Under the pieces are notes generated by a model. The model had not been told where the DNA came from. It made no database searches and was given only the letters and a program-made list of their open reading frames with translations. Made by a program: the position numbers and the translations under genes. 64,000 nt of DNA from Escherichia coli (GTDB taxonomy: Bacteria; Pseudomonadota; Gammaproteobacteria; Enterobacterales; Enterobacteriaceae): NCBI RefSeq assembly GCF_022846255.1, contig NZ_AP025682.1; one strand, given 5' to 3'. Numbering within the stretch: position 1 is the first letter of the stretch; every line of letters starts with the position of its first letter. Shown here in pieces: positions 10,308-64,000 of this stretch.

Positions 10308-10308
10308 A

Positions 10309-11079: not shown

Positions 11080-11090
11080 AATTTCAAACC

Positions 11091-11117: not shown

Positions 11118-11286
11118 TCTGCTTTTTGCCGCTTTTGTAATACAGTCTACGTCCGGGTTAGCGCCGCCTGGTGAAAGCATCATTGGATGAAAAATCGGCA
11201 ACAGGCTGGCCCCTGTTTGCTTCGCGATGCGAATAAACTTATTATTTGTGTGCCTGAAAACCCCGATCAGTGAGAGTAGTGTACTC

Positions 11287-44011: not shown

Positions 44012-44236
44012 AGATTATTCCCTTTGCAATGAAGCATTTCCCTTCTCCCTGTAGTAATACAGACATAAGGTATCATCTCATTTTCTCAATAAAAATAAGA
44101 AAATTTGAGCTTCCTTTAAGATAATTCGACAAGTATACCATATAAATAGTCGGCATAAATAAAATGTCAACAATAAAATCAGGGATGATACCGATGATTT
44201 ATAGTTTCAAATGAGCACTATAAGTTTTCTCACTAA

Positions 44237-44253
44237 TCCTACAGGCGTAAGAA
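44237..44253. promoter_or_regulatory. candidate EvgA box (imperfect inverted repeat TCCTACA-GG-CGTAAGAA) in the evgA-emrK divergent region
   Basis: Resembles the EvgA consensus as I recall it (TTCYTACA...TGTARGAA). Confidence 0.4.
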
Positions 44254-44426
44254 TTGTATTGCAAAAGCCGCGGTTTAGTCCTCTGTTGTTATTTTTGCAC
44301 TTCATTTAAATTAGCCCTCCAACGTTCCCGGGATAATGTGCAAAACATGCACTGTGTTTGATATGAGGAATGAATACTCTTTTCATTCAATTCATAAATT
44401 TCATCTATGCGAAATGAGAGATAATA

Positions 44427-45590
44427 GTGGAACAGATTAATTCAAATAAAAAACATTCTGACAGAAGAAAATATTTTGCTTTGTTAGCGGTAGTTTTATT
44501 TATTGCGTTTTCAGGTGCCTATGCCTATTGGTCAATGGAATTAAAAGACATGATTAGTACAGATGACGCCTATGTCACGGGAAATGCAGATCCAATTTCT
44601 GCACAAGTCTCAGGCAGCGTCACTGTCGTTAATCATAAAGATACGAACTACGTTCGACAAGGTGACATTTTAGTTTCACTGGATAAAACTGATGCCACTA
44701 TCGCACTCAATAAAGCTAAAAATAATCTGGCAAATATTGTTCGGCAAACGAATAAACTATACTTACAGGATAAACAATACAGTGCCGAAGTCGCTTCAGC
44801 ACGTATTCAGTATCAACAATCTTTAGAAGATTATAACCGTCGTGTGCCTTTAGCGAAGCAAGGGGTTATTTCAAAAGAAGCGCTGGAGCATACCAAAGAT
44901 ACGTTAATAAGTAGCAAAGCGGCATTGAATGCTGCTATCCAGGCTTATAAAGCGAATAAAGCTTTAGTAATGAACACACCATTAAACCGTCAGCCACAAG
45001 TCATTGAAGCTGCAGATGCAACCAAAGAAGCCTGGTTGGCGCTTAAACGTACGGATATTAAGAGTCCGGTTACCGGTTATATTGCCCAGAGAAGTGTTCA
45101 GGTCGGCGAAACAGTGAGTCCCGGACAATCATTAATGGCTGTCGTACCGGCGCGTCAAATGTGGGTTAATGCCAACTTTAAAGAAACACAACTCACGGAT
45201 GTACGGATTGGTCAATCGGTCAATATTATCAGCGATCTTTATGGTGAAAATGTTGTGTTTCATGGTCGGGTGACAGGGATCAATATGGGAACCGGCAATG
45301 CGTTCTCCTTATTACCTGCACAAAATGCGACAGGGAACTGGATCAAAATCGTTCAGCGTGTACCGGTTGAAGTTTCTCTGGATCCAAAAGAACTCATGGA
45401 ACACCCTTTGCGCATTGGTTTATCGATGACTGCAACTATTGATACGAAGAATGAAGACATTGCCGAGATGCCCGATCTGGCTTCAACCGTGACGTCCATG
45501 CCTGCTTATACCAGTAAGGCTTTAGTTATCGATACTAGTCCGATAGAAAAAGAAATTAGCAACATTATTTCGCATAATGGACAACTTTAA
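44427..45590 (+). CDS. emrK: multidrug efflux membrane fusion protein (HlyD family)
   Basis: 387-aa ORF with N-terminal TM, coiled-coil and beta-barrel segments; EmrA paralogue. Confidence 0.88.
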   Translation: MEQINSNKKHSDRRKYFALLAVVLFIAFSGAYAYWSMELKDMISTDDAYVTGNADPISAQVSGSVTVVNHKDTNYVRQGDILVSLDKTDATIALNKAKNNLANIVRQTNKLYLQDKQYSAEVASARIQYQQSLEDYNRRVPLAKQGVISKEALEHTKDTLISSKAALNAAIQAYKANKALVMNTPLNRQPQVIEAADATKEAWLALKRTDIKSPVTGYIAQRSVQVGETVSPGQSLMAVVPARQMWVNANFKETQLTDVRIGQSVNIISDLYGENVVFHGRVTGINMGTGNAFSLLPAQNATGNWIKIVQRVPVEVSLDPKELMEHPLRIGLSMTATIDTKNEDIAEMPDLASTVTSMPAYTSKALVIDTSPIEKEISNIISHNGQL

Positions 45591-47128
45591 TGGCAATCAC
45601 TAAATCAACTCCTGCACCATTAACCGGTGGGACGTTATGGTGCGTCACTATTGCATTGTCATTAGCGACGTTTATGCAAATGTTGGATTCCACTATTTCT
45701 AACGTCGCAATACCGACAATATCTGGCTTTCTGGGAGCATCAACAGACGAAGGCACCTGGGTTATCACCTCGTTTGGCGTAGCAAATGCCATTGCGATCC
45801 CTGTTACCGGCAGGCTGGCACAAAGAATAGGCGAATTAAGGTTATTTTTACTTTCAGTAACCTTTTTTTCGCTGTCTTCATTAATGTGTAGTTTATCGAC
45901 CAATCTTGATGTGCTGATATTTTTTAGAGTCGTTCAGGGGTTAATGGCGGGGCCGTTAATTCCACTGTCACAGAGTTTATTATTAAGGAATTATCCACCA
46001 GAAAAAAGAACATTTGCTCTGGCATTATGGTCAATGACCGTGATTATCGCTCCGATATGTGGGCCGATATTGGGCGGCTATATTTGCGATAACTTTAGCT
46101 GGGGTTGGATATTTTTAATCAATGTCCCTATGGGGATTATCGTCCTGACATTATGCTTAACCTTACTTAAAGGACGAGAAACTGAGACTTCACCGGTCAA
46201 AATGAATCTACCAGGACTGACCCTGTTAGTGCTCGGTGTTGGTGGCTTGCAAATTATGCTTGATAAAGGGCGCGATCTGGATTGGTTCAACTCGAGTACA
46301 ATAATACTACTAACAGTAGTATCAGTTATTTCTCTGATCTCTTTAGTCATTTGGGAGTCGACCTCAGAGAATCCGATTCTTGACCTCAGTTTGTTTAAGT
46401 CCCGTAATTTCACCATTGGTATTGTGAGTATCACATGCGCGTATTTATTTTACTCTGGAGCGATAGTTCTTATGCCGCAGTTACTCCAGGAAACGATGGG
46501 GTATAATGCGATATGGGCCGGACTTGCCTATGCGCCCATCGGTATCATGCCGCTATTAATATCACCTTTGATAGGACGTTATGGCAACAAAATTGATATG
46601 CGGTTGTTGGTGACATTTAGTTTTTTGATGTATGCGGTTTGCTATTACTGGCGTTCTGTGACATTTATGCCAACGATTGATTTTACAGGCATCATTTTGC
46701 CACAGTTTTTTCAGGGATTCGCCGTTGCCTGTTTCTTTTTACCCTTAACAACGATTTCGTTTTCAGGCTTGCCAGATAATAAATTTGCCAATGCCTCGAG
46801 TATGAGTAATTTTTTTCGCACCTTGTCAGGATCAGTTGGTACGTCGTTGACAATGACACTGTGGGGACGCCGCGAATCGTTACACCATAGTCAGTTGACA
46901 GCAACCATCGATCAATTTAACCCCGTGTTTAATTCATCGTCACAAATTATGGATAAATACTATGGTTCGCTTTCAGGAGTTCTTAATGAAATTAATAATG
47001 AAATAACTCAGCAGTCACTTTCTATTTCTGCAAATGAGATTTTCCGTATGGCGGCTATTGCTTTTATCTTACTTACGGTTTTGGTTTGGTTTGCGAAACC
47101 GCCGTTTACAGCGAAAGGCGTTGGGTGA
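45590..47128 (+). CDS. emrY: multidrug efflux MFS transporter (DHA2, 14 TM)
   Basis: 512-aa polytopic ORF; start overlaps the emrK stop (ATGA-type coupling). Confidence 0.88.
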   Translation: MAITKSTPAPLTGGTLWCVTIALSLATFMQMLDSTISNVAIPTISGFLGASTDEGTWVITSFGVANAIAIPVTGRLAQRIGELRLFLLSVTFFSLSSLMCSLSTNLDVLIFFRVVQGLMAGPLIPLSQSLLLRNYPPEKRTFALALWSMTVIIAPICGPILGGYICDNFSWGWIFLINVPMGIIVLTLCLTLLKGRETETSPVKMNLPGLTLLVLGVGGLQIMLDKGRDLDWFNSSTIILLTVVSVISLISLVIWESTSENPILDLSLFKSRNFTIGIVSITCAYLFYSGAIVLMPQLLQETMGYNAIWAGLAYAPIGIMPLLISPLIGRYGNKIDMRLLVTFSFLMYAVCYYWRSVTFMPTIDFTGIILPQFFQGFAVACFFLPLTTISFSGLPDNKFANASSMSNFFRTLSGSVGTSLTMTLWGRRESLHHSQLTATIDQFNPVFNSSSQIMDKYYGSLSGVLNEINNEITQQSLSISANEIFRMAAIAFILLTVLVWFAKPPFTAKGVG

Positions 47129-47235
47129 TGGAAAAAGAGGAGGCTATAGCAGGTAAAACGGCAGAATCTTAAGTCTGCGTCATCGGCAGCATCGCTCACC
47201 CAGGGAAAGGATGGCGATGCTGCGTTGAAACGTTA

Positions 47236-48564
47236 TTAACGGCCTTTTGCCAGATATTGATTCATCTCTTCTTCCGGCACCATTCCACCTCCCGTCGCCC
47301 ACACCAGATGAGTGGCATTACGCAGTTGTTCTGCGCTGAAACCGTGCATCTGTTGGTAACTTACTGATGCGCACACGCGCTGAGACCCGGCCATACCCGC
47401 CAGTGCCGATGGTTCAAGACGAATACCTTCTTCCTGCGCCAGCCAGCCAAGCATGTCATACATGGTTTGATCGCTAAGGGTATAGAAGCCATCCAGCAGA
47501 CGCTCCATCGCCCGCCCGACAAAGCCCGATGCGCGACCAACCGCAAGGCCATCGGCAGCGGTAAGGTTGTCGATGCCAATATCCTGAACAGAAATCTGAT
47601 CGTGTAATCCGGTATGGACGCCTAATAACATACACGGGGAGTGTGTTGGTTCGGCAAAAAAGCAGTGAACATGATCGCCAAACGCCAGTTTAAGTCCGAA
47701 TGCGACGCCACCAGGACCACCGCCAACACCACACGGCAGATAGACAAATAGAGGGTTATCAGCATCGACGATACGGCCTTGCTGGGCAAATTGCGCTTTA
47801 AGACGCTGGCCAGCGACGGAATACCCAAGGAACAACGTGCGGGAATTCTCGTCATCAATAAAGAAACAGTTCGGGTCAGACTGCGCGGCTTTACGTCCTT
47901 CCTCGACGGCAACACCATAATCTTGCTCGTATTCCACGACAGTAACGCCATGACTGCGCAGTTTCGCTTTTTTCCAGGCGCGGGCATCAGCAGACATATG
48001 CACCGTTACTTTAAAGCCGATGCGGGCGCTCATAATACCAATTGATAACCCCAGATTTCCGGTTGATCCCACAGCAATACTGTATTGGCTAAAGAACTGT
48101 TTAAACTCCGGGGAAAGCAGTTTGCTGTAGTCATCTTCAAGCGTCAGCAACCCCGCTTCCAGAGCCAGTTTTTCTGCATGTGCCAGGACTTCATAAATCC
48201 CGCCGCGTGCTTTTATGGAGCCGGAAATAGGCAAATGGCTGTCTTTTTTTAGTAGCAATTGCCCGGCGATCGGTTGTTGATATTCCTTTTCCAGCCGTTT
48301 TTGCATAGCAGGAATAGCAACCAGTTCTGATTCAATAATCCCCCCCGCGGCAGCCGTTTCAGGAAATGCTTTTGCCAGATACGGCGCAAAACGAGACAGG
48401 CGCGCATGGGCGTCCTGAACATCCTGTTCGGTCAGGCCAACATAAGGTAAACCTTCTGCCAATGAGGTCGTGCCAGGATTAAACCAGGTGGTTTCTTTAA
48501 GAGCAACCAGATCCTCTACCAACGGATACTGGGCGATGAGCGAATTCATTTTAGCGTTTTCCAT
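47236..48564 (-). CDS. dsdA: D-serine ammonia-lyase (D-serine dehydratase)
   Basis: 442-aa PLP-enzyme ORF with lysine motif SGSIKARGG. Confidence 0.92.
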
Positions 48565-48581
48565 AGTACGTCTCTTTGCGC

Positions 48582-49919
48582 TTAGATGATAAATGACAGC
48601 AGGAATGTGCCCGCCAGAGCGATGACTGAAGCGATAAATGTCGCTGTCGTATAGTATTTAAATGTTTCATTGAGCGTAGCGCTGCAATATTGCTTCACCA
48701 GCCAGAAAAGCGAGTCTGTCACGATTGTGCAGCCAATTGCGCCCGAACCGATGGCAATTGCAATAATTTCCGGGCTGATGTCGGGATACAGCGGCAGCAT
48801 GGGTGCAACAATTGCCGTTGCCCCCATCATTGCCACCGTAGCGGAGCCCACTGCAGCATGCAGAATAAGTGCCACCAACCAGGCCAGAAGAATCGGGTGC
48901 ATATGCATATTGGAGAGAATAACTGCCAGCGTATCAGCGAGACTGCTGCTTTTTAAAATGGCGTTGAATGCGCCTCCGGCCCCGATAATCAGCAAAATAT
49001 TAGCAATAGAACCGAAACCATTTTCCGTATGTGTGAGCATCGTCCCCATGCTCATATGCTGACGTATACCCAACACATAATAGGCGACAAACACGGCGAT
49101 AAACATGGCAGTGATAGGGTTGCCAATAAACTCAAGCAAGGTATACAAACCACTCTCACGCGCCATATTCAATTCGGCAATCGTTTTCACCAACATCAGC
49201 GCAATGGGCAGCAGTACGGTGAATAACGTTGCGCCTAATGACGGTAGTGTTTTTTCATCGCGAACTTTGAGATCGGCAAACTCTGTGGGTACAGGCTTAA
49301 AGGGCAGTCGTTGACCCAGAAATTTAAGGAAAAGCGGGCCACCGATCAGTGATGCCATCAGCCCAACCAGCAAACCGTAGACGATCACCGAACCGATATC
49401 TGCGCCCAGCTTATTGGCAACATATAAAGCAGCCGGATGTGGAGGAACCACGCAGTGCACTGCCATCAATGCGGTACACAGCGGAATGGCCAGCTTTAAC
49501 AATGAGGTATTGGTTTTTTTGGCAATTGAAAAAGCCAGAGGAATCAATAGTACGACGCCCACTTCAACAAACAGCGTGATGCCGCAAATCAGGCCAACCA
49601 GCACCATAATGACATCAGCCGAAAGCCAGCGGCAGCGCTGAAGTGTCAGACCAATTCTTTCTGCGGCACCGGATACTTCCATCATTTTTCCCAGTATCGT
49701 GCCAAGGCCGATAACCGCAGCGAGGAAACCCAGCGTTCCGCCAATTCCACTTTCAATAGCATTTACCATATCCAGTGGTCCCATACCCATCATCGTTCCC
49801 ACGAAGAAGCTGGCCAGCAACAGCGCCAGAAACGGGTGGAATTTGAACTTCACGATGGTCAGTACAATTAACACGATGCTGATAAGCAGCGTGCTCACAA
49901 CCCAGATTTGAGAGTGCAT
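48582..49919 (-). CDS. dsdX: D-serine transporter (GntP family)
   Basis: 445-aa polytopic ORF upstream of dsdA. Confidence 0.9.
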
Positions 49920-50136
49920 ATCTCACCTTCCCCTGTGATTAACCTGATGATATTGGACAAAAAAACAACGCAGGCTGACAAACGATAAAATTTGCCTTTC
50001 ACATGAGCTAAATTGCATCAAGGGAGTGATTTACATCTAAAAATGAAGGTGAATTGAGATATGGTTCACTTTAGCTCACCTTACAGCTGAAATTTTGCCG
50101 CTATTTTTTTACACTTAAGAGAAAAATGAGGTGATT

Positions 50137-51072
50137 ATGGAACCCCTTCGTGAAATAAGAAATCGACTGCTTAACGGCTGGCAACTATCAAAACTGCATA
50201 CTTTTGAAGTGGCTGCCAGGCATCAGTCCTTCGCTCTCGCGGCAGAGGAATTGTCGCTGAGCCCCAGTGCGGTAAGTCACCGTATCAATCAGCTGGAAGA
50301 AGAATTAGGTATTCAGTTGTTTGTTCGTTCCCATCGCAAAGTGGAATTAACGCACGAGGGGAAACGTGTTTATTGGGCGCTAAAATCGTCGCTGGATACC
50401 CTGAATCAGGAAATTCTGGATATCAAAAATCAGGAGTTATCGGGAACGTTAACGCTGTATTCCCGGCCCTCTATCGCCCAATGCTGGTTGGTGCCCGCAT
50501 TAGGTGACTTTACACGCCGATATCCGTCTATTTCGCTCACCGTGCTCACTGGTAATGACAATGTCAATTTGCAACGTGCCGGAATCGATTTGGCAATCTA
50601 CTTTGATGACGCGCCGTCAGCGCAATTGACTCATCACTTTCTGATGGATGAAGAAATCTTGCCAGTTTGCAGCCCGGAGTACGCTCAAAGACATGATTTA
50701 ACCAACCAGGTAATTAACCTGCGCCACTGTACGTTGCTCCATGACAGACAGGCATGGAGCAACGACTCCGGTACGGATGAATGGCATAGTTGGGCGCAAC
50801 ATTATGCGGTTAATTTGCCGACATCTTCTGGAATTGGCTTTGATCGCTCTGATTTAGCCGTTATCGCCGCGATGAATCATATTGGGGTGGCGATGGGAAG
50901 GAAGCGTCTGGTACAAAAAAGGCTTGCCAGTGGTGAGCTCGTCGCGCCGTTTGGCGATATGACGGTGAAATGCCATCAGCATTATTACATCACCACATTA
51001 CCGGGCAGGCAGTGGCCAAAAATTGAGGCATTTATTACCTGGTTAAGAGAACAGGTAAAAACCACTTCATAA
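50137..51072 (+). CDS. dsdC: LysR-family activator of dsdXA
   Basis: Track ORF 50131..51072 trimmed to Met-3 (311 aa); divergent from dsdX. Confidence 0.88.
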   Translation: MEPLREIRNRLLNGWQLSKLHTFEVAARHQSFALAAEELSLSPSAVSHRINQLEEELGIQLFVRSHRKVELTHEGKRVYWALKSSLDTLNQEILDIKNQELSGTLTLYSRPSIAQCWLVPALGDFTRRYPSISLTVLTGNDNVNLQRAGIDLAIYFDDAPSAQLTHHFLMDEEILPVCSPEYAQRHDLTNQVINLRHCTLLHDRQAWSNDSGTDEWHSWAQHYAVNLPTSSGIGFDRSDLAVIAAMNHIGVAMGRKRLVQKRLASGELVAPFGDMTVKCHQHYYITTLPGRQWPKIEAFITWLREQVKTTS

Positions 51073-51171
51073 TGAATAAGACCACGAGTTCCTGGTGTGC
51101 CTTATTCGGCACTGCTAGTGCGAATTTAATAATTTACGGTTTTTACGTGGTTTTAGGGATAAACACAAGAA

Positions 51172-51186
51172 TGGTGTCCCCTGCAG
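51172..51186 (-). other. attR-type core: 15-nt copy of a tRNA-Arg (argW-type) 3' end (CTGCAGGGGACACCA on the minus strand)
   Basis: Exact match to acceptor-stem 3' strand plus CCA of argW as I recall that sequence; lies at the chromosome/prophage junction. Confidence 0.6.
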
Positions 51187-51259
51187 ACATCTACTTGAGG
51201 CGGCAGGGGATTGATTGGAATGGTGTTTTTTAGATGTGAGAAATATTTTACCCGCTATT

Positions 51260-51460
51260 TTACCCATTGGCGCGGCTTAAGAGCTTATTTTTGAATTCAC
51301 AATGGTCACGATATAACCATCTTGCTCTCCCGTGGATAACTTTGGCTTTTGGCAGGTCGCCGGACTTAATCCGGTCATAGATGAAGGTTTTACCGAAGCC
51401 AGTATCGGCCATGATGAATTTCAAATCAACCAGTGAATCAGGTTGTAGTTCGTGTTGCAT
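51260..51460 (-). CDS. torI: TorI-type excisionase / recombination directionality factor (66 aa)
   Basis: 66-aa ORF MQHELQPDSLVDLKFIMADTGFGKTFIYDRIKSGDLPKAKVIHGRARWLYRDHCEFKNKLLSRANG; matches my recollection of TorI, and is an AlpA/Xis-like winged-helix protein. Confidence 0.8.
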   Translation of the reverse strand: MQHELQPDSLVDLKFIMADTGFGKTFIYDRIKSGDLPKAKVIHGRARWLYRDHCEFKNKLLSRANG

Positions 51461-51478
51461 GAGTGCTATCTCCGAATA

Positions 51479-51494
51479 GGGAATCGAACCTGCA
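51479..51494 (-). other. second tRNA-derived fragment: 16-nt exact match to the argW T-arm (TTGCAGGTTCGATTCC on the minus strand)
   Basis: Exact 16-mer, about 300 bp inside the prophage, immediately upstream of torI. Confidence 0.55.
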
Positions 51495-51504
51495 AATCAG
51501 GCAA

Positions 51505-51525
51505 TAAAAAACCGCATTGATGCGG
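51505..51525 (-). terminator. rho-independent terminator (minus strand) downstream of the 114-aa gene
   Basis: Hairpin ccgcatcaatgcgg followed by a T-run on the minus strand. Confidence 0.5.
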
Positions 51526-51584
51526 CAATGGTAGGTCTGGATATCTTGAGAAATGAACGGGCCTCATCGAGTGTGAGGCTGTGG

Positions 51585-51929
51585 TTAGTCCTTGCGTAAC
51601 TCGCTAATTCTTCTGTAAGTCTCTGGTGCTTTGTTTCCGTGTATCTTCATTTCAGACTTCAACAGAGCAACGAGAGAATCCCATTCGTTGAGGATGCCTT
51701 TGAATGCCGGAACGCGCTTTGCAACCTTGTCGAATGAATCCCTGATTTCTGGAATCTGCTCGACAAGCGCAACGCATCGTCGGAAATCGGCTGCGTCATG
51801 TGGAGCACCGAAGCTATGACCATAGATATTCTTTTTCAGTCCACATGCGATTGAGGCAAGAGTTGCGCTACTGATGCCAACATCGCCAGTCGATTGCCAT
51901 TTCAAAACCTTCATAGCCAAATCTGACAT
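51585..51929 (-). CDS. hypothetical prophage protein (114 aa), no recognisable domain
   Basis: Track ORF; not hydrophobic; I recognise no family. Confidence 0.55.
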   Translation of the reverse strand: MSDLAMKVLKWQSTGDVGISSATLASIACGLKKNIYGHSFGAPHDAADFRRCVALVEQIPEIRDSFDKVAKRVPAFKGILNEWDSLVALLKSEMKIHGNKAPETYRRISELRKD

Positions 51930-51956
51930 TTCTTGTCTCCAATAAAAAAACCGCCA

Positions 51957-52124
51957 TCAGGCGGCTTGGTGTTCTTTCAGTTCTTCAATTCGAATATTGG
52001 TTATGTCTGCATGTGCTATCTGCGCCCATATTATCCAGTGGTCATAGCAGTCGTTGATGTTTTCTGCTTCGATAACCCTGTTGAATGGCTCTCCATTCCA
52101 TTCTCCTGTGACTCGGAAGTGCAT
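51957..52124 (-). CDS. hypothetical small prophage protein (55 aa)
   Basis: Micro-ORF MHFRVTGEWNGEPFNRVIEAENINDCYDHWIIWAQIAHADITNIRIEELKEHQAA whose stop codon sits in a strong terminator hairpin (gccgcctgatggcggc followed by a T-run); absent from the track because it is under 60 aa. Confidence 0.4.
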   Translation of the reverse strand: MHFRVTGEWNGEPFNRVIEAENINDCYDHWIIWAQIAHADITNIRIEELKEHQAA

Positions 52125-52266
52125 TTATCATCTCCATAAAACAAAACTCGCCGTAGCGAGTTCAGATAAAAGAAATCCCCGCGAGGGCGGGGATGTTAAG
52201 TCGGTGGGGGTACAGTATGGATATCGAAAATTATTGCGCGATTCTCATTACTCCCCTGGGAAAACA

Positions 52267-52725
52267 TTATCTGGCAAGCATACGTTGTTGATGCTGTTTC
52301 ACAACACGTAAACGTAAGCTGTCATAGGCCCAATTGTAGAACATGGTATATGGTAGAAAGAAAAGGAAGAATCCTATCTCTAGTGTAAAAGCCTGTAACA
52401 GACTGACGCTCAGAATCCAGGACACCATAATGACGCCGATCGCGATAAATCCACTTTCAAAGCCCAAAGCATGGAATGCACGAACTTTTGCAGTTCGTTT
52501 TACCTGATGAGCAGGCCAGTAGCGATCAAATAGCATGTTATAGATGATATTCCAGATCATTGCAGTTGAAGCCAACAAGATAGTCATCCCGCCCATTTCG
52601 AGTATAGTTCGCTGCATTAACCATGCTGTGGTGGGGGCCAGAATCGCAGTGGCAATTCCTTCAAAGCAAATAGCGTGAAAAATACGCTCAAGTAACGATC
52701 TGTGTTGAATCGCATTATGTTGCAT
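52267..52725 (-). CDS. PACE-family efflux protein (AceI-like; two tandem bacterial-transmembrane-pair repeats)
   Basis: 152 aa, four predicted TM helices, with the signature repeated once per half: ERIFHAICFEG and VRAFHALGFESG (compare AceI RLIHAISYEG / VRILHAIGFEG). Confidence 0.8.
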   Translation of the reverse strand: MQHNAIQHRSLLERIFHAICFEGIATAILAPTTAWLMQRTILEMGGMTILLASTAMIWNIIYNMLFDRYWPAHQVKRTAKVRAFHALGFESGFIAIGVIMVSWILSVSLLQAFTLEIGFFLFFLPYTMFYNWAYDSLRLRVVKQHQQRMLAR

Positions 52726-52828
52726 AACTTACCTTTCTTACAGTTTCGACCGCGTTATGGAGTTGTGAGATTTTTATCGATTTATGTGATATATAAAAGA
52801 TAGATACCATCGAAAAAATTGATAGATT

Positions 52829-53713
52829 ATGCGTTACTCACTTGAAGCGTTAAGTACATTTGTTGAAGTGGTTTCCTGTGGCTCCTTTTCTGCTGCGGCA
52901 CGAAGATTACGTAAAAGTCAGTCCGCAGTCAGTACGTCAATTGCCAATCTTGAGGTCGATCTTGGTATATCATTATTCGATCGCTCTTCGCGAGAACCTG
53001 TGCTGACAGAGGAAGGAAAGAAAGTATTGAGTTACGTTCATGCGATTTTATCAGCCAGTGAACGTCTTGAGGAGGTGGCGGTTTCGCTTGCCGGAGAGAC
53101 TGAAGCTCGTCTGACGTTTGTGCTTTCCGATACCCTACACCCTGACTTATTAGAAGACATCATGGTGCAGTTTGATAGTCAGTTTCCACATACTGAGTTA
53201 GAGGTTTTAATTGGTGAGGATGTCGATGTCATCGATCTTTTGCAAAAAGAACGAGCGCAGATCGGCTTAATTGAGTCTCGGGAACACTACCCCACCGATA
53301 TTGGCTCAACCCGTTTACCGATGCAAGCGTGGATGGGCATTTATGTTTCGGCGTCACATCCACTGTCTGCAGAAAAAACAATCCAGCGGGAACAACTTCA
53401 TTCATGGCGAGAACTTCGTCTTAATACTTATATCGATAACCGGGAGATGATTGCCCGTGGACCGGTTTGGTCTGCACCTAACTATTTGTTGTTACTCAGT
53501 ATGGCCGTACAGGGATTTGGCTGGTGCTCTCTGCCCTGTGCTCTGGTTGAGGAGTTTGCAACAGAAAAACCGCTGGTTCAGCTCGACGTACCTGGCTGGC
53601 CAAAGGCAATTTCTATCGATCTGCTTTGGAATAAAAAATCGCCACCAGGCGCGGCTGGAAATTGGCTTAAGCATCATTTACAGCATATCAATGCCCCAAA
53701 TAGTCGAACTTAG
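52829..53713 (+). CDS. LysR-family transcriptional regulator (AceR-like), divergent from the PACE gene
   Basis: 294-aa ORF with N-terminal LysR HTH (LEALSTFVEVVSCGSFSAAARRLRKSQSAVSTSIANLE); 103-bp divergent intergenic region. Confidence 0.8.
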   Translation: MRYSLEALSTFVEVVSCGSFSAAARRLRKSQSAVSTSIANLEVDLGISLFDRSSREPVLTEEGKKVLSYVHAILSASERLEEVAVSLAGETEARLTFVLSDTLHPDLLEDIMVQFDSQFPHTELEVLIGEDVDVIDLLQKERAQIGLIESREHYPTDIGSTRLPMQAWMGIYVSASHPLSAEKTIQREQLHSWRELRLNTYIDNREMIARGPVWSAPNYLLLLSMAVQGFGWCSLPCALVEEFATEKPLVQLDVPGWPKAISIDLLWNKKSPPGAAGNWLKHHLQHINAPNSRT

Positions 53714-53834
53714 ATTAGTTAAAATATGGAATCCTGAAATAATCTCTGTTGATATGTGGAGCCATCTTCCAGGCTCCCACCTAAATCATGTTAGCAGTTC
53801 CATTTTTTTGATGATTTCCGCATGAGCATCATCG

Positions 53835-53918
53835 TTATCCCCAGCGACAAATTGAATACAAAACCAGTGCTACCGCCATTGCAATTCCTACCGTTGCGAA
53901 TGCTTCAGGCCAGCTCAT
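53835..53918 (-). CDS. hypothetical 27-aa hydrophobic peptide, start overlaps the stop of the upstream gene
   Basis: ATGA overlap with the 214-aa gene; encodes MSWPEAFATVGIAMAVALVLYSICRWG (single predicted TM helix). Confidence 0.25.
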   Translation of the reverse strand: MSWPEAFATVGIAMAVALVLYSICRWG

Positions 53919-54559
53919 TGATTCACCTCCTGCGGCGGTTCTGGTAGTGGTATCCAGAACAAGGCGTTCCCTAACCACGATAAAGTGCCGTCGCTCAACT
54001 CCACGTATTCCCCTTGCACCTGTCCTGCCATATACTCACCGTGCTTTGAATAAATTAAAATCCAATCATCTTGAGCGGGCATTCGCTCACTACAGCTTAT
54101 CCAACCACCCGGAGTTACCGGAGAGTTGCCGCGTTCTTTAATGTGCAAGCGAGGCTCACCATCTTTTGGTTCAGGCCACTGGCGCTCCATGTTGATCTTC
54201 AATTTATCTTCCATAGCAGCGGTAATTTCAGCATCGCTGATGCCAGCACGGCGCTGTGCATCCCACAACAGGAACTGCATATCAGCCCACTCGCTGAGAT
54301 CGTCTGGTTCGGCTGCGGCTTCCAGAGCCTCTTTTGAGAGGTGTTTCAGTGGACCAATGGGGCCAACGCAGCCAAATGTGGAGTCAGACCATTTGGCATG
54401 CTCGTGGCGAATCTGTTCGCGTTCCAGTGAGGCGAGAGCGATTTTAAATGCTGTAAGCATGTGTGCTTGATCGTTGTCGAGTCCGAATGGCATTTCATCT
54501 CGTGCTGACTCAATACTGGTAATCGTATTTTGTAGCCATTCTTTGGTAAAAGTGCTCAT
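53915..54559 (-). CDS. prophage protein with MazG-like nucleotide pyrophosphohydrolase N-terminal domain (DUF550-like) and DUF551-like C-terminal domain
   Basis: 214-aa ORF; N-terminal acidic helices (EALEAAAEPDDLSEWADMQFLLWDAQRR) and C-terminal DUF551-like segment; common in enterobacterial prophages. Confidence 0.55.
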   Translation of the reverse strand: MSTFTKEWLQNTITSIESARDEMPFGLDNDQAHMLTAFKIALASLEREQIRHEHAKWSDSTFGCVGPIGPLKHLSKEALEAAAEPDDLSEWADMQFLLWDAQRRAGISDAEITAAMEDKLKINMERQWPEPKDGEPRLHIKERGNSPVTPGGWISCSERMPAQDDWILIYSKHGEYMAGQVQGEYVELSDGTLSWLGNALFWIPLPEPPQEVNQ

Positions 54560-54927
54560 CGTAAAATATCCTCTATACTGGTAAGTCCTTCATTATTTAG
54601 CCAGATCATGGCGTCATCCGGCAACTTGCTGTCTGGTTTGGCGTTTTTGAGAGAGGAACTCAGTCGCTTAATCCACATTGTCACCTCAGTAATGCGCCTG
54701 TCTTTGCCTTCCAGCTCAACACGCAGCTTCCCTACTGTTAGCGCAATATCCTCGTTCTCCTGGTCGCGGCGTTTGATGTATTGCTGGTTTCTTTCCCGTT
54801 CATCCAGCAGTTCCAGCACAATCGATGGTGTTATCAATTTATGGAAAAGGTCTGCGTCAAATCCCCAGTCGTCATGCATTGCCTGCTCTGCCGCTTCACG
54901 CAGTGCCTGAGAGTTAATTTCGCTCAC
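54556..54927 (-). CDS. Ead/Ea22-like prophage early protein (123 aa)
   Basis: Acidic coiled-coil protein; start overlaps the stop of the upstream zinc-finger gene. Confidence 0.5.
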   Translation of the reverse strand: MSEINSQALREAAEQAMHDDWGFDADLFHKLITPSIVLELLDERERNQQYIKRRDQENEDIALTVGKLRVELEGKDRRITEVTMWIKRLSSSLKNAKPDSKLPDDAMIWLNNEGLTSIEDILR

Positions 54928-55145
54928 TTCGAACCTCTCTGTTTACTGATAAGCTCCAGATCTTCCTGGCAACTTGCACAAGTCCGACAACCCTGAACGG
55001 CCAGGCGTCTTCGCTCATCTATGGGATCGCCACACTCACAACAATGAGTGGCAGATACAGCCTGGTGGTTCAGACGACGCATTTTTATTGCTGTATTGCG
55101 CTGTAATTCTTCGATTTCTGATGCTGAATCAATGATGTCTGCCAT
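54924..55145 (-). CDS. TraR/DksA-family C4 zinc-finger protein (lambda Orf73-like)
   Basis: 73-aa ORF with CxxC-N17-CxxC (CCECG...CRTCASC). Confidence 0.65.
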   Translation of the reverse strand: MADIIDSASEIEELQRNTAIKMRRLNHQAVSATHCCECGDPIDERRRLAVQGCRTCASCQEDLELISKQRGSK

Positions 55146-55243
55146 CTTCCATTAATCCCTGAATTGTTGGTTAATACGCTTGAGGGTGAATGCGAACAAT
55201 AAAAAAGGAGCCTGTAGCTCCCTGATGATTTTGCTTTTCATGT

Positions 55244-55525
55244 TCACCGTTCCTTAAAGACGCCATTTAACATGCCGATCGCCAGGCTTAAATGAGTCGG
55301 TGTGAATCCCATCAGCGTTACCGTTTCGCGGTGCTTCTTCAGTACGCTACGGCAAATGTCATCGACGTTTTTATCCGGAAACTGCTGTCTGGCATTTTTG
55401 ATTTCAGAATTAGCCTGACGGGCAATGCTGCGAAGGGCGTTTTCTTGCTGAGGTGTCATTGAACAAGTCCCATGTCGGCAAGCATAAGCACACAGAATTT
55501 GAAGCCCGCTGCCAGAAAAATGCAT
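55244..55525 (-). CDS. hypothetical lambda-type early-left protein (start may be the internal Met at 55459, giving 71 aa)
   Basis: Track ORF in the block between the TraR-like gene and exo. Confidence 0.4.
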   Translation of the reverse strand: MHFSGSGLQILCAYACRHGTCSMTPQQENALRSIARQANSEIKNARQQFPDKNVDDICRSVLKKHRETVTLMGFTPTHLSLAIGMLNGVFKER

Positions 55526-55535
55526 TCAGTGGTTG

Positions 55536-55727
55536 TCATACCTGGTCTCTCTCATCTGCTTCTGCTTTCGCCACCATCATTTCCAGCTTTTGTGAAAGGG
55601 ATGTGGCTAACGTATGAAATTCTTCGTCTGTTTCTACTGGTATTGGCACAAACCTGACTCCAATTTGAGCAAGGCTATGTGCCATCTCAATACTCGTTCT
55701 TAACTTAACAGGAGATGCTTTGTGCAT
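55536..55727 (-). CDS. hypothetical lambda-type early-left protein (63 aa)
   Basis: Track ORF; position equivalent to lambda orf63. Confidence 0.4.
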   Translation of the reverse strand: MHKASPVKLRTSIEMAHSLAQIGVRFVPIPVETDEEFHTLATSLSQKLEMMVAKAEADERDQV

Positions 55728-55888
55728 ATCGCCTCCCGTTTATTATTTATCTCCTCAGCCAGCCGCTGGGCTTTCAGTGGATTTTGGATAACAGAAAGGC
55801 CGGGAAATACCCAGCCTCGCTTTGTAACGGAGTAGACGAAAGTGATCGCACCTACCCGGATATTATCGTGAGGATGCGTCATCGCCAT
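55700..55888 (-). CDS. hypothetical lambda-type early-left protein (62 aa)
   Basis: Track ORF directly after exo; position equivalent to lambda orf60a. Confidence 0.35.
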
Positions 55889-56559
55889 TGCTCCCCAAAT
55901 ACAAAACCAATTTCAGCCAGTGCCTCGTCCATTTTTTCGATGAACTCCGGCACCATCTCGTCAAAACTCGCCATGTACTTTTCATCCTGCTCAATCACGA
56001 CATAATGCAGGCCTTCACGCTTCATCCGCGGGTCATAGTTAGCAAAGTACCAGGCATCTTTTCGTGTCACCCACATGCTGTACTGCACCTGGGCCATGTA
56101 AGCCGACTTTATGGCCTCGAAACCACCGAGCCGGAATTTCATGAAATCCCGGGAGGTAAACGGGCATTTCAGTTCAAGGCCGTTGCCGTCACTGCATAAA
56201 CCATCGGGAGAGCAGGCGGTGCGCATACTTTCGTCGCGATAGATGATCGGGGATTCATTAACATTCACGCCGGAAGTGAACTCAAAGAGGGCTCTGGCGT
56301 CGTTCTCGTACTGTTTTCCCCAGGCCAGCGCCTTAGCGTTAACTTCCGGAGCCACACCGGTGCAAACCTCGGCAAGCAGGGTGTGGAAGTAGGACATTTT
56401 CATGTCAGGCCATTTCTTTCCGGAGCGGGGTTTTGCTATCACATTGTGAACTTCTGAAGCGGTGATGATGCCGAGCCGTAATTTGTGCCATGCATCATCC
56501 CCCTGTTCGACAGCTCTCACGTCGATCCCGGTACGCTGCAGGATAATGTCCGGTGTCAT
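55879..56559 (-). CDS. exo: lambda-type 5'-3' exonuclease (Red-alpha)
   Basis: 226-aa ORF near-identical to lambda Exo as I recall it ([30 protein letters not shown]...). Confidence 0.93.
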
Positions 56560-58520: not shown

Positions 58521-59210
58521 CTACCCATGCTTCCTATATGTCTGCGGCATGCTCCCAATAACCTTACCGAAGATGAACACCCGGTTCATCTCGTCTTTCT
58601 CGATCGGGTCCCACGGTGAGTAGCTTTTGTTATCAGAGATGACCAGCAGCTTATCCTTCATCATTTGCAGGCGCTTTACATGGGCTGTGTCGTCGTACAG
58701 AAACGCATAGATACCATCACCGTCGAAAGATTTAACTGTGATATCAACGAACAGCAGATCACCTGGTTCGATCGTTCCTGACATGCTGTCACCACGCACG
58801 TTAATGATGCGGATATTTTCCGCCTTCCTACCATCGAACATGTGACGAGCATCGTCAAACGAGTACTCAACCGAGCGTAGAACTTCTACAAACTCACGGT
58901 TGATGACTCCCGGCCCAGCACTGACTTCTATATCAAGAACGTCAATCTTAAAGTATTTGGAATGGCTGACAGTTGATAGTATTGGTTGCACTGTACTGTC
59001 TGACATATTTCCAACGCCAGAAGATAACCATTCTGCGCGCACACCCAAAGCGTTCGCGATCTCCACGATTTTAGTTGTTTGATTAGCTTTCCCTGTTTCG
59101 ATTTTCTGAATAGCAGCCTGGCTAACCCCGACCAAATCCCCAAGCGCCTTTTGTGTAAGGCCTCGCGCTAATCTGGCTTCTTTAAGTCTTTCTGAGAGTG
59201 TTGTTTTCAT
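58521..59210 (-). CDS. cI: CI-like prophage repressor (XRE-type HTH plus S24 LexA-like peptidase domain)
   Basis: 229 aa from the Met at 59210 (track ORF extends to 59273); HTH LTQKALGDLVGVSQAAIQKIE; C-terminal GDSM...K autocleavage-type domain; start lacks a Shine-Dalgarno, consistent with a leaderless pRM-type mRNA. Confidence 0.85.
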   Translation of the reverse strand: MKTTLSERLKEARLARGLTQKALGDLVGVSQAAIQKIETGKANQTTKIVEIANALGVRAEWLSSGVGNMSDSTVQPILSTVSHSKYFKIDVLDIEVSAGPGVINREFVEVLRSVEYSFDDARHMFDGRKAENIRIINVRGDSMSGTIEPGDLLFVDITVKSFDGDGIYAFLYDDTAHVKRLQMMKDKLLVISDNKSYSPWDPIEKDEMNRVFIFGKVIGSMPQTYRKHG

Positions 59211-59216
59211 AGTCCA

Positions 59217-59287
59217 AATGTACAACCAAGGTTTTATTCCATCAAACGAAAATGGTTGTTGACTAAAAAACAACCATAGTTTTAATC
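59217..59287. promoter_or_regulatory. cI-cro divergent control region: candidate pRM (minus; -35 TTGATG, -10 TACATT), pR (plus; -35 TTGACT, -10 TTAATC) and operator palindrome ATGGTTGTT-N8-AACAACCAT
   Basis: 26-bp palindrome 59252..59277 overlapping the pR -35; pRM -10 ends 7 bp before the cI ATG. Confidence 0.5.
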
Positions 59288-61171: not shown

Positions 61172-61869
61172 AAAACATCGCCGCACAGATGGTTAACTTT
61201 GACCGTGAGCAGATGCGCCGGATCGCCAACAATATGCCGGAACAGTACGACGAAAAGCCGCACGTACAGCAGGTAGCGCAGATCATCAATGGTGTGTTCA
61301 GCCAGTTACTGGCAACTTTCCCTGCGAGCCTGGCTAACCGGGATCAGAACGAACTGAACGAAATCCGCCGCCAGTGGGTTCTGGCTTTCCGGGAAAACGG
61401 GATCACCACAATGGAACAGGTTAACGCAGGAATGCGCGTAGCCCGTCGGCAGAATCGACCATTCCTGCCATCACCCGGGCAGTTTGTTGCCTGGTGCCGG
61501 GAAGAAACATCCGTTACCGCCGGGCTGCCAAACGCCAGCGAGCTGGTTGATATGGTTTACGAGTATTGCCGGAAGCGTGGCCTGTATCCGGACGCAGAGT
61601 CTTATCCATGGAAATCAAACGCGCACTACTGGCTGGTTACCAACCTGTACCAGAACATGCGGGCCAATGCGCTGACTGACGCGGAATTACGGCGTAAAGC
61701 TGCCGATGAGCTGACCTGTATGACCGCGCGAATTAACCGTGGTGAGGCGATACCTGAACCAGTAAAACAACTTCCTGTCATGGGCGGTAGACCTCTAAAT
61801 CGTGCACAGGCTCTGGCGAAGATCGCAGAAATCAAAGCTAAGTTTGGGCTGAAAGGAGCAAGGGTATGA
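61168..61869 (+). CDS. P: replication protein P (DnaB helicase loader)
   Basis: 233-aa ORF near-identical to lambda P; start overlaps O. Confidence 0.92.
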   Translation: MKNIAAQMVNFDREQMRRIANNMPEQYDEKPHVQQVAQIINGVFSQLLATFPASLANRDQNELNEIRRQWVLAFRENGITTMEQVNAGMRVARRQNRPFLPSPGQFVAWCREETSVTAGLPNASELVDMVYEYCRKRGLYPDAESYPWKSNAHYWLVTNLYQNMRANALTDAELRRKAADELTCMTARINRGEAIPEPVKQLPVMGGRPLNRAQALAKIAEIKAKFGLKGARV

Positions 61870-62168
61870 CGGGCAAAGAGGCAATTATTCATTACCTGGG
61901 GACTCATAAGAACTTCTGTGCGCAGGACGTTGCCGTGGTAACAGGCGCAACCGTAACCAGCATAAATCAGGCTGCGGCTAAAATGGCACGGGCAGGTCTT
62001 CTGGTTATCGAAGGTAAGGTCTGGCGAACGGTGTATTACCGGTTTGCTACCAGGGAAGAACGGGAAGGAAAGATGAGCACGAACCTGATTTTTAAGGAGT
62101 GTCGCCAGAGTGCCGCGATGAAACGGGTATTGAGGGTATATAAAAGAACATCAATGGGTACACAATGA
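61866..62168 (+). CDS. ren: Ren protein (100 aa)
   Basis: Near-identical to lambda Ren (MTGKEAIIHYLGTH...); start overlaps P. Confidence 0.85.
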   Translation: MTGKEAIIHYLGTHKNFCAQDVAVVTGATVTSINQAAAKMARAGLLVIEGKVWRTVYYRFATREEREGKMSTNLIFKECRQSAAMKRVLRVYKRTSMGTQ

Positions 62169-62235
62169 TGAAACAGATGAGTTGAGTTCAAACTGTAGTA
62201 CAATTCTCTCCAGTTTGAACAGGAAAGAATATGCT

Positions 62236-62568
62236 ATGAATCCTTATATTTATCTTGGTGGTGCAATACTTGCAGAGGTCATTGGTACAACCTTAATGAA
62301 GTTTTCAGAAGGTTTTACACGGTTATGGCCATCTGTTGGTACAATTATTTGTTATTGTGCATCATTCTGGTTATTAGCTCAGACGCTGGCTTATATTCCT
62401 ACAGGGATTGCTTATGCTATCTGGTCAGGAGTCGGTATTGTCCTGATTAGCTTACTATCATGGGGATTTTTCGGCCAACGGCTGGACCTGCCAGCTATTA
62501 TAGGCATGATGTTGATTTGTGCCGGTGTGTTGGTTATTAATTTATTTTCACGAAGCACACCACATTAA
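62236..62568 (+). CDS. emrE: SMR-family multidrug efflux protein EmrE (110 aa)
   Basis: MNPYIYLGGAILAEVIGTTLMKFSEGF... with the conserved Glu14; track ORF 62182..62568 trimmed to this Met. Confidence 0.9.
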   Translation: MNPYIYLGGAILAEVIGTTLMKFSEGFTRLWPSVGTIICYCASFWLLAQTLAYIPTGIAYAIWSGVGIVLISLLSWGFFGQRLDLPAIIGMMLICAGVLVINLFSRSTPH

Positions 62569-62601
62569 AAATAATTTCTTTTGAATCGAGTGAAATAGGT
62601 T

Positions 62602-62629
62602 AGCCCGCATAAGTGCGGGCTGCTTTTTA
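62602..62629. terminator. bidirectional rho-independent terminator between emrE and the convergent esterase gene
   Basis: Hairpin agcccgcataagtgcgggct followed by a T-run. Confidence 0.6.
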
Positions 62630-63670
62630 CAGGTCAGCGTTTGTTTTTTGTTGTTGGGTAGCGGTTTTTATGGGGGTTCCCAGGTTTTTAGTAAACCACT
62701 CAACAACTCTGTTTATAATAATTGGCTGATACCATGTATTATCTCCATGCTCAGCCCCTTCTACCAGAACGTACTCAGCGTTATCGCCGTTCTTCTTCAA
62801 CATCCTGAATAGTTTGGCGCTTTGCTCAGGTGAAACCAGAGTGTCTTTGCTACCATGCATAATAAGAAATGGGGGGTTTACTCCTTTCATATGTCCGATT
62901 GGACTGGCGTTTAGCGCTTTTTCTTTTGACGCTGTTATGGGGGCTCCCGCAAAACTTCTGAATGCAGGGCCATTGATCATTAAGGCTTCGGTTACGGCAG
63001 GAGATCGATGAACCTCCTGCACAGATTCAGGGAACCCCTCGCCAATATTCAACAAGTCAGAAATCCCATAAAGTGTGGCAACTGCCTGAACATCTGCTGA
63101 TTGCTGAAGAAAGTCACCTTTATCAAAGGTTTTGTCACCATTTGTAGTTCCCATCATCTGGGCAAGCCATCCACCGGCAGAGTCACCCAGAACTCCGATT
63201 CTTTGAGGATCAATCCCATAATCGCTGGCATGTTCTCTCAAGTAACGTATTGCAGCTTTCCCATCCTCAACTGGTGCTGGAAATGTATCAGGAATTGTTC
63301 TGTATTCTACAGCGGCCACAACAAAACCAGCTTCAGCCAGAGCCATTCTCATTTCAATAAATTTGTCATGTTCAGAAGACATGAATCCGCCGCCGGGATA
63401 ATAAATAATGGCTGGTTTTAAATCATTTGTTCGTGGGACAAGAACTGACATGTGAAGCTGTCTGACAGAACGAGTTCCTTTTATCTGGGAATAAACAACA
63501 TCACCAATGAGATCGACCTGGTTTCTGGTCGGTGAAACACTAATGATATCTGCACCCGGGGTGTAACCAGGAAGATTAGTCTGGACAGGTGTTGCACAAC
63601 TCCCGACCGACATGGCCATTGACATACCATACAATAGTGTTGCAGATGATAATATCTTGTTAATTTTCAT
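62627..63670 (-). CDS. secreted or lipoprotein alpha/beta-hydrolase (esterase/lipase, hormone-sensitive-lipase-like)
   Basis: 347-aa ORF with N-terminal signal peptide ending ...SVGSC, oxyanion-hole motif YYPGGGF and nucleophile elbow GDSAGG; low GC by eye. Confidence 0.75.
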   Translation of the reverse strand: MKINKILSSATLLYGMSMAMSVGSCATPVQTNLPGYTPGADIISVSPTRNQVDLIGDVVYSQIKGTRSVRQLHMSVLVPRTNDLKPAIIYYPGGGFMSSEHDKFIEMRMALAEAGFVVAAVEYRTIPDTFPAPVEDGKAAIRYLREHASDYGIDPQRIGVLGDSAGGWLAQMMGTTNGDKTFDKGDFLQQSADVQAVATLYGISDLLNIGEGFPESVQEVHRSPAVTEALMINGPAFRSFAGAPITASKEKALNASPIGHMKGVNPPFLIMHGSKDTLVSPEQSAKLFRMLKKNGDNAEYVLVEGAEHGDNTWYQPIIINRVVEWFTKNLGTPIKTATQQQKTNADL

Positions 63671-64000
63671 GTTTTACATGCCTTGACTTATCGGATGAAA
63701 TTCTCTTACTGAATTTAACGGCAGTTTAATAGCCGTACAACTCGTGGTAGCTAGGGAAATATCCCAGTCGTGGTTAAGGTTGTACTTGACGGCTATTATT
63801 TCAACAATGCTTAAAGTGAGAGCTTAAGGTTATGCGTATGTTTTACAGTCCGAGTAGATTCTGACCAATAGCTTCTTTGTATGATTCTGTCAGAAATAAA
63901 TCTTGGCTTGCATGAAGTTTGAGACCTTATCTTGTTTGATTATGAATAATCAATTCGCCATAATTGTATCACCGGAGCCTGAACAACTTCGGTGACTTCT

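Follow-up and report, generated by a model that had tools for sequence, protein, structure and literature searches.

A prophage-borne gene next to emrE in Escherichia coli encodes a predicted lipoprotein esterase of the BD-FAE/CE10-like group

Gene organization of the locus

We analyzed a 64-kb stretch of Escherichia coli DNA from contig NZ_AP025682.1 (hereafter the window, which means the whole stretch, position 1 being its first letter). The right-hand end of the window holds part of a lambdoid prophage in which the multidrug efflux gene emrE is followed, on the opposite strand, by an open reading frame (ORF) for a predicted esterase; the latter is the subject of this report. An earlier note, made from the sequence letters, had presented the two genes as a pair placed right after ren. 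The arrangement itself was as described: the EmrE model scored above its cutoff, a match to the Ren-like family phrog_142 lies just upstream, and the alpha/beta hydrolase of 347 amino acids (aa) is encoded convergently (Table 1). The ren-like gene, whose homologue in phage Perceval is annotated as RenD, closes the backbone part of the early-right operon ahead of the cargo. The EmrE protein shares 108 of its 110 residues (98%) with that of K-12 and retains the essential Glu14.

Both genes had also been judged AT-rich by eye, and the measured values agree with this: the G + C content (GC) is 40.2% for emrE and 44.3% for the esterase gene, against 48.1% for the window. The GC at third codon positions was likewise low (0.32 and 0.37, respectively, compared with 0.51-0.59 for the replication genes O and P), and the GC of the esterase cassette as a whole was 43.5%.

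Table 1. Features of the region 61866-64000 and of the esterase encoded in it
Feature	Position	Strand	Evidence or remark
ren-like gene	61866-62168	+	phrog_142 “Ren-like exclusion protein,” 141 bits
emrE, SMR multidrug efflux gene, classic DLP12 cargo	62236-62568	+	NCBIfam SMR_efflux_EmrE, 239 bits (cutoff 226)
Hybrid 38-bp repeat copy, putative deletion junction	62560-62597		two overlapping alignments to the related locus L002
Common core of the repeat	62563-62577		putative crossover
Intrinsic terminator, hairpin 62601-62622 and CTTTTT	62601-62628	+	terminator scan, folding
Esterase ORF, 347 aa, convergent with emrE	62627-63670	-	ORF list, Pfam BD-FAE
Esterase stop codon	62627-62629	-	overlaps the terminator T-run
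His308 codon	62747-62749	-	predicted catalytic triad
Asp276 codon	62843-62845	-	predicted catalytic triad
Ser164 codon	63179-63181	-	predicted catalytic triad
GDSAGG motif	63170-63187	-	residues 162-167
YYPGGGF motif	63383-63403	-	residues 90-96
Predicted signal peptide with lipobox	63596-63670	-	pattern match
Lipobox V22-G-S-C25	63596-63607	-	
Cassette-specific region upstream of the esterase	63671-63934	-	GC 38.3%; putative promoter and ribosome-binding site
DLP12-type backbone resumes, region upstream of ylcH-ybcN	63935-64000	+	K-12 DLP12 (L016 9284-9349), 84.8%

Prophage location, module boundaries, and distribution

The last 66 positions of the window align again to the K-12 DLP12 backbone just upstream of ylcH, and homology to the related locus L002 resumes there too. 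In the locus of E. coli F467 (NZ_OY754409.1), which is 99.7% identical, the esterase gene is followed by ylcH-ybcN-ninE-ybcO-rusA-ylcG-quuD and, beyond quuD (Q), by porin, lysis, terminase, and portal genes. The same continuation after the esterase was observed in other E. coli prophages and in the isolated phages Perceval, 4A7, Lambda_4C10, D2, 1W, 3W, and PhiR47_2, whose esterase protein is 98.8% identical. Two of these, 4C10 and 4A7, have been described as inducible, plaque-forming Bievrevirus prophages from human gut isolates (bioRxiv 10.64898/2026.05.26.727859). Since the backbone homology resumes and the related prophages and phages run on into phage genes, the esterase is genuine phage cargo. 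The alternative that the ORF belongs to the neighboring non-phage chromosome, which had been thought to need sequence beyond position 64000 to decide, was rejected, as the backbone resumes inside the window and in all related loci.

The distribution of the gene was surveyed in 5426 complete E. coli genomes. It is carried by 680 of them (approximately 12%), in 670 cases over at least 80% of its length, and it is also present in at least eight deposited phage genomes and matches a PHROG family of its own (phrog_3341 “esterase,” 430 bits). Thus, the view that an esterase is unusual phage cargo does not hold. Comparison with other lambdoid prophages placed the slot between emrE/ybcK and ylcH, where K-12 DLP12 has ybcL-ybcM.

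The boundaries of the inserted segment could be defined from the same comparisons. Across contexts, homology to the window sets in precisely where the esterase stop codon and the T-run lie (position 62623), and each left-hand module brings its own hairpin. On the other side, 326 of the 330 positions in 63671-64000 (98.8%) are identical between the window and the most common context, in which an inverse autotransporter gene lies on the left; this exceeds the conservation of the coding sequence itself. The part 63671-63934 showed no homology to K-12 or to the phenolic acid decarboxylase (padC) operons described below. The common starting point of homology and the conserved upstream region suggest that the esterase gene together with this region forms one module that behaves independently of its neighbors. 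The segment has the features by which phage morons are recognized, namely insertion between conserved backbone genes, variable presence, and deviant GC, and the earlier suggestion of a lysogenic-conversion factor was judged reasonable.

Two further occurrences were noted. Three E. coli records listed as plasmids in PLSDB (CP088398.1, CP054248.1, and NZ_AP026904.1; 238-542 kb) carry the esterase gene; CP088398.1, which was inspected, holds the whole esterase prophage region, and the three records may be misassigned fragments of chromosomes or prophage-bearing megaplasmids. Escherichia phage PHB10 (MK524177; L005 1-5915) encodes a leaderless homologue with 73% identity within a metabolic block of approximately 5 kb (LysR regulator, amidohydrolase, gluconolactonase, and aromatic alcohol reductase) upstream of rusA and Q. 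Either the corresponding slot of this phage acquired the block independently, or the record is a chimera.

Origin of the junction between emrE and the esterase gene

The direct junction seen in the window was found in only one other genome of the survey, the above-mentioned E. coli F467. The left-hand neighbor of the esterase is different in the other contexts. In the commonest esterase prophage (E. coli ZH193, L017 4699-8964; approximately 439 genomes), a gene for an intimin/invasin-like inverse autotransporter of 1421 aa lies directly after P and replaces ren-emrE-ybcK, and iss is located after the lysis genes of the same prophage. In approximately 172 genomes, the left neighbor is ylcJ-ybcK, where ybcK encodes a large serine recombinase.

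The ybcK-bearing relatives contain an imperfect direct repeat of 38 bp in two copies, one at the emrE stop codon and one 2.07 kb further on, behind ybcK (7924-7961 and 9998-10035 in L002). The window matches L002 at 7164-7961 and 9998-11438, and both alignments overlap at a single hybrid repeat copy, in which the crossover would lie in the common core CATTAAAAATAATTT. One hybrid copy in the window, as against two copies in the relatives, indicates that the arrangement arose by deletion, and the junction appears to be the product of a rare 2.07-kb loss of ylcJ and ybcK between the 38-bp repeats. The hybrid copy may correspond to the empty site of a mobile ybcK insertion or to simple repeat-mediated loss. 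The possibility that the repeat downstream of ybcK marks the end of another emrE gene was rejected, since no similarity was found past the 38 bp. With the junction present in 1 of the 5426 genomes and formed by deletion, the proposed pairing with emrE has to be abandoned: the adjacency is an accident without functional meaning.

The sequence between the two genes forms a hairpin of nine pairs, six of them GC, with a loop of four nucleotides, followed by the T-run on the + strand (folding energy -22.1 kcal/mol, z = -2.8). On the - strand, the hairpin can also form, but it is followed by AACCTATTTCAC, without a U-run, and the scan gave no site on this strand. The terminator had been called bidirectional, which is not supported because of this missing U-run; it is a canonical terminator for rightward (+) transcription only. 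Neither the scan nor folding revealed a canonical - strand terminator at the esterase 3' end.

Protein family, active site, and export signal

The best Pfam match of the esterase was BD-FAE (PF20434; 1.5e-44, 152.6 bits against a threshold of 26.8), which covered profile positions 7-214 of 215. The Abhydrolase_3 (HSL) profile scored 80.9 bits (threshold 25), about half of the BD-FAE score, and the C-terminal half of the protein matched a Peptidase_S9-like profile. No NCBIfam model reached its cutoff; the curated HSL subfamilies of that database (GTSAG, GESAG, GCSAG, and LipP1) gave 32-79 bits versus cutoffs of 350-430. The two motifs on which the initial HSL assignment was based, YYPGGGF and GDSAGG, are both present. 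That assignment stands in part: the GDSAG motif and the above-threshold Abhydrolase_3 match agree with it, whereas BD-FAE fits better, the His of the HSL motif HGGG is replaced by Pro92, which is nearly invariant in the family, and the NCBIfam HSL models remain below their cutoffs.

The predicted catalytic residues are intact. In an alignment of 33 homologous sequences, S164, D276, and H308, as well as G93-G95-F96, were invariant; therefore, the objection that the ORF might carry a disrupted triad fails. The triad and the oxyanion Gly align to the GFSSGG, HGDAD, and GGGHG segments of BD-FAE. An AlphaFold (AF2) model was obtained with a predicted template modeling score (pTM) of 0.80, and the predicted local distance difference test value (pLDDT) of its core was above 90. 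The top match among solved structures was Lip_vut4 from a goat rumen metagenome (6nkf; 8.8e-37, Foldseek 1.1e-23, 31% identity), followed by BD-FAE (6tkx, 6xyc), a Bacteroides GH43-CE enzyme (6mly), and an acetyl ester-xyloside bifunctional hydrolase (6a6o). These nearest structures are carbohydrate esterases of rumen or gut origin. BD-FAE has been characterized biochemically as a feruloyl and acetyl-xylan esterase with the triad Ser128/Asp237/His269 (PMC8165983). By best match, the protein is thus a predicted serine esterase that is BD-FAE/CE10-like rather than a classical HSL member.

The N-terminus begins with MKINK (K2 and K5), which is followed by a hydrophobic stretch and then by V22-G-S-C25; the PROSITE-type lipobox pattern matches GMSMAMSVGSC (residues 15-25). 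The representative of the 90% cluster has Tyr25, and Cys25 was therefore considered as a private mutation. This was rejected: an exact 41-mer over the TGT codon of Cys25 occurs in 679 complete genomes, the version with TAT (Tyr) in none. The lipoprotein signal suspected from the sequence is thus supported by the pattern match and the fixed Cys codon. Proteins of the sister clade have the lipobox STGC or SAGC (STGY in P0004), while more distant relatives have mostly AxA-type leaders and a few have no leader. The residue at position +2 governs Lol-dependent sorting to the outer membrane by an established rule, and the Ala at this position predicts outer-membrane sorting of the esterase.

Selection and expression

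The ratio of nonsynonymous to synonymous substitution rates (dN/dS) between the window allele and those of Perceval and ZH193 was 0.09-0.19. Comparison with the padC-linked genes gave 0.05-0.10, with dS saturated at this distance, and pairs with very few substitutions gave noisier values of up to 0.45. The obtained values therefore indicate purifying selection on the esterase gene.

The gene is antisense to the phage early-right operon, and the promoter pR thus cannot drive it. Since the terminator of the left-hand gene abuts the esterase stop codon and the two genes have opposite orientations, expression is expected to start from the upstream region of the esterase itself. A putative ribosome-binding site, AAGG, is located 10 nt before its ATG.

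Related genes and predicted substrates

Homologues with 62-72% identity are chromosomal or plasmid genes of Dickeya, Pectobacterium, Pantoea, Kosakonia, Klebsiella, Kluyvera, and Rhizobium, that is, mostly of plant-associated Enterobacterales and rhizobia among the matches listed. Dickeya aquatica encodes two paralogues separated by 3 kb, each of which received the name “Ferulate esterase” from the authors of the genome; SLM61953.1 is 66% identical over 327 residues and SLM61950.1 is 46% identical to the window esterase. In D. aquatica 174/2 (L009 5001-10075), the paralogues (343 and 328 aa), each with a signal peptide, lie on either side of genes for a major facilitator superfamily transporter and a LysR regulator. 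According to reviews, Dickeya has exactly two feruloyl esterases, FaeD and FaeT, of family CE10 (PMC10319131; PMC9007343), of which FaeD is secreted via the Out system (PMC10319131; PMC9007343; bioRxiv 10.1101/568105); the FaeD/FaeT study is given as Hassan and Hugouvieux-Cotte-Pattat (2011), as cited in PMC6237967, PMC9007343, and PMC10319131. If one of the D. aquatica paralogues is FaeT, which is reportedly cytoplasmic, its predicted signal peptide would be unexpected.

The gene neighborhoods of the closest non-phage relatives, which share 74-80% identity with the window esterase, are more informative. In P0002, the esterase gene is located approximately 10-35 nt behind padC (PF05870). P0004 and P0005 have the same spacing together with a divergent gene for a LysR regulator, and so does the E. 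coli IncF plasmid pSCU-105-1 (WP_169063299.1), in which an IS3 element disrupts the LysR gene. P0003 retains only a C-terminal remnant of padC. Thus, padC lies directly upstream in four independent contexts, three of which also contain the divergent LysR gene. In a neighbor-joining tree, calculated without bootstrap, the phage clade was sister to this padC-linked lipoprotein clade. An esterase co-transcribed with a phenolic acid decarboxylase is most simply taken to be the enzyme that frees phenolic acids from their esters. Action on the host envelope, which had been suggested for the phage protein, found no support; phenolic or acetyl esters of plant origin are indicated instead by the gene neighborhood and by homology.

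Proposed function and alternative explanations

Taken together, these data suggest that the esterase gene is a self-contained moron that occupies the nin-region slot in lambdoid prophages of the DLP12/Bievrevirus type. Its transcription would start in the conserved region upstream of it rather than at pR. The product would be exported by its lipoprotein signal peptide, with predicted cleavage and lipidation at Cys25 and sorting to the outer membrane, and would act through Ser164-Asp276-His308 in the manner of the BD-FAE/CE10-like group. The most likely substrates would be feruloyl, caffeoyl, or p-coumaroyl esters, for example feruloylated oligosaccharides and chlorogenic acid, and possibly acetyl-sugar esters. 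Judged by homology and gene neighborhood, gut lysogens would gain an extracytoplasmic esterase otherwise absent from E. coli. We consider it probable, if only just, that the locus contains a lone cargo gene for an exported outer-membrane lipoprotein esterase of plant hydroxycinnamate (possibly acetyl-sugar) esters, accidentally adjacent to emrE. A more specific version, in which the gene is a phage auxiliary metabolic gene for dietary polyphenols, that is, a feruloyl/hydroxycinnamoyl esterase captured from an enterobacterial LysR-padC-esterase operon and now a stand-alone moron, is more doubtful and is put forward tentatively.

Several observations weigh against the interpretation as an exported plant-ester esterase. 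With regard to the substrate, the name “Ferulate esterase” of the D. aquatica proteins was itself assigned by homology, and 6nkf, the closest solved structure, was deposited as a “lipase.” When the sequences preceding the phage gene were searched by tblastn (window, L001, and L017), neither padC nor a padC remnant was detected, so that lysogens of E. coli are left without the partner enzyme on which the substrate prediction is built and would perform the release step only. With regard to export, the hydrophobicity of the h-region is moderate (Kyte-Doolittle about 1.0-1.45), Gly at position -2 is not the commonest lipobox residue, and variants at the lipobox exist, as the Escherichia marmotae allele reads VGNC and the 90% cluster representative has Tyr25. 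With regard to expression, no sigma-70 site was found at the standard threshold on the - strand upstream of the esterase, and relaxing the scan yielded a single weak extended -10 element (TGaAATAAT, ending at 63795). A literature search retrieved no functional study of the phage esterase and no enzymatic, export, or expression data.

The main alternative concerning the substrate is that of a generic short-chain carboxylesterase or lipase, which would act in the periplasm or at the surface on dietary or host triglycerides or lysolipids and have no tie to plant phenolics. The deposition of its best solved relative, Lip_vut4, as a lipase, the additional matches to the Abhydrolase_3, COesterase, and PETase profiles, and the frequent promiscuity of the family enzymes on p-nitrophenyl esters are consistent with such an enzyme. 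It is nevertheless unlikely in our view: the BD-FAE score is about twice that of Abhydrolase_3, its closest orthologue with a functional name is called a ferulate esterase, sister-clade members share an operon with a phenolic acid decarboxylase gene, and the non-phage members come mostly from plant-associated Enterobacterales and rhizobia, among the matches listed. A lipoprotein that remodels the cell surface, deacetylating O-antigen, capsule, enterobacterial common antigen, or peptidoglycan and thereby blocking superinfection or altering immune recognition, is less probable still. Phage esterases that deacetylate surface glycans do exist, the predicted lipoprotein signal and a slot known for lysogenic-conversion genes would suit this role, and in its commonest context the gene adjoins the inverse autotransporter adhesin gene, with iss in the same prophage. 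However, no homology to glycan deacetylases of the SGNH or tailspike type was found, and the non-phage relatives are chromosomal or plasmid metabolic genes, several of them linked to padC and LysR regulators.

The remaining two explanations question whether the gene has a function of its own at all or one apart from emrE. A silent, decaying passenger without current function would account for the lack of a convincing promoter and for the absence of the ancestral LysR activator and padC partner from the cassette. It appears very improbable given the low dN/dS of well-separated phage alleles (0.09-0.19) and of comparisons with the sister clade (0.05-0.10), the full-length gene in 670 of 680 carriers, the invariant triad, the fixed lipobox Cys, and an upstream region more conserved than the coding sequence. 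A functional pair with emrE, in which the esterase would hydrolyze, for instance, cationic ester compounds or choline esters carried by EmrE, might be read from the convergent arrangement with only 58 bp between two low-GC genes and from the annotation of K-12 EmrE as a multidrug/betaine/choline efflux transporter. The distribution largely refutes it and leaves it hardly credible: the adjacency, formed by the 2.07-kb deletion, occurs in 1 of 5426 genomes, approximately 439 esterase-bearing genomes have the inverse autotransporter in place of ren-emrE-ybcK, and K-12 and many other genomes carry emrE without the esterase.

Some of these facts were already known. The presence of emrE in DLP12 is textbook knowledge, and annotations of the esterase already exist in hundreds of genomes, in RefSeq, in phage records, and in PHROGs. 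New here are the proof of phage cargo with the module boundaries, the recognition of the emrE adjacency as a deletion artifact, the reassignment from HSL to the BD-FAE/CE10-like group, and the ancestry in padC operons that, together with the fixed lipobox, leads to the substrate hypothesis. If the plant-ester interpretation is true, approximately 12% of E. coli strains could free ferulic or caffeic acid from plant fiber or chlorogenic acid at the surface of the cell in the gut, and these acids, once set free, might influence niche competition or host signaling. Human clinical isolates make up many of the carriers, and in these the inverse autotransporter adhesin gene and iss accompany the esterase gene. 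Bacteroidota, lactobacilli, and bifidobacteria are the bacteria to which plant-ester degradation is normally attributed; common inducible gut coliphages of the Bievrevirus/DLP12-like type would, if the enzyme is active, spread this ability among E. coli. An active enzyme would also offer a case of metabolic conversion by a phage that can be tested in a model organism.

Remaining part of the prophage and its flank

At the left end of the prophage (window 50131-54927), neither an integrase nor a tRNA gene was found. Chromosomal genes reach position 53713 and encode a LysR regulator (likely dsdC), a BTP chlorhexidine-efflux protein, and a second LysR regulator, and the phage-type genes begin at 53915 with dATP/dGTP pyrophosphohydrolase-DUF551 and Ead/Ea22. 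The flank corresponds to the dsdCXA/emrKY region, whereas argU is the site of DLP12 in K-12 and of the prophage in F467, in other respects the most similar genome. The best E. coli matches to window positions 44000-56000 were approximately 96% identical with a coverage of at most 77%, and no complete genome reached 80%; the host may belong to a divergent Escherichia lineage or be mosaic in this part. The segment 58000-58600, just downstream of the 3' end of a cI-like repressor gene (58521-59273, -), has a GC of 0.39-0.45. The closest prophage differs there in having genes for a HipA kinase and a DUF3037 protein, and its immunity region is only 91% identical.

Comparison with known systems

The esterase shares its fold and the positions of its triad (GxSxG, HGxxD, and the C-terminal HG His) with BD-FAE (6TKX/6XYC) from polysaccharide utilization loci (PULs) of gut Bacteroidota, although the identity is only approximately 26%. 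BD-FAE has been described with a disulfide Cys186-Cys242 and a ferulate contact at Glu197. It is encoded within a PUL, whereas the phage esterase is a lone prophage gene with a predicted lipoprotein leader. The Dickeya proteins resemble the phage esterase in their N-terminal signal peptides and have LysR regulator genes nearby, but they are chromosomally encoded and their leaders are of the signal peptidase I type, in contrast to the lipobox of the phage-borne protein. The LysR-padC-esterase operons share the lipoprotein-type leader with it, with the exception of P0004; in these operons the esterase gene is the second gene after padC, while the phage cassette has an unrelated upstream region of 264 bp without padC or LysR genes.

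Members of the HSL family (bacterial family IV, for example, E. coli Aes) also have the GDSAG nucleophile motif and the GGG oxyanion loop. The phage esterase differs from them in the replacement of the HGGG His by Pro and in its C-terminal half, which is closer to the HGxxD type of Peptidase_S9 and DLH proteins. Aes is cytoplasmic, unlike the esterase with its predicted export.

Among prophage cargo genes, ybcL-ybcM of K-12 occupy the same slot, from ybcK to ylcH-ybcN. Both these genes and the bor, lom, and iss morons resemble the esterase gene in being inserts of foreign GC that encode envelope proteins, as the esterase is predicted to be. The products of ybcL-ybcM belong to another protein family, and the two genes are co-directional with the early operon, whereas the esterase gene is antisense to it.

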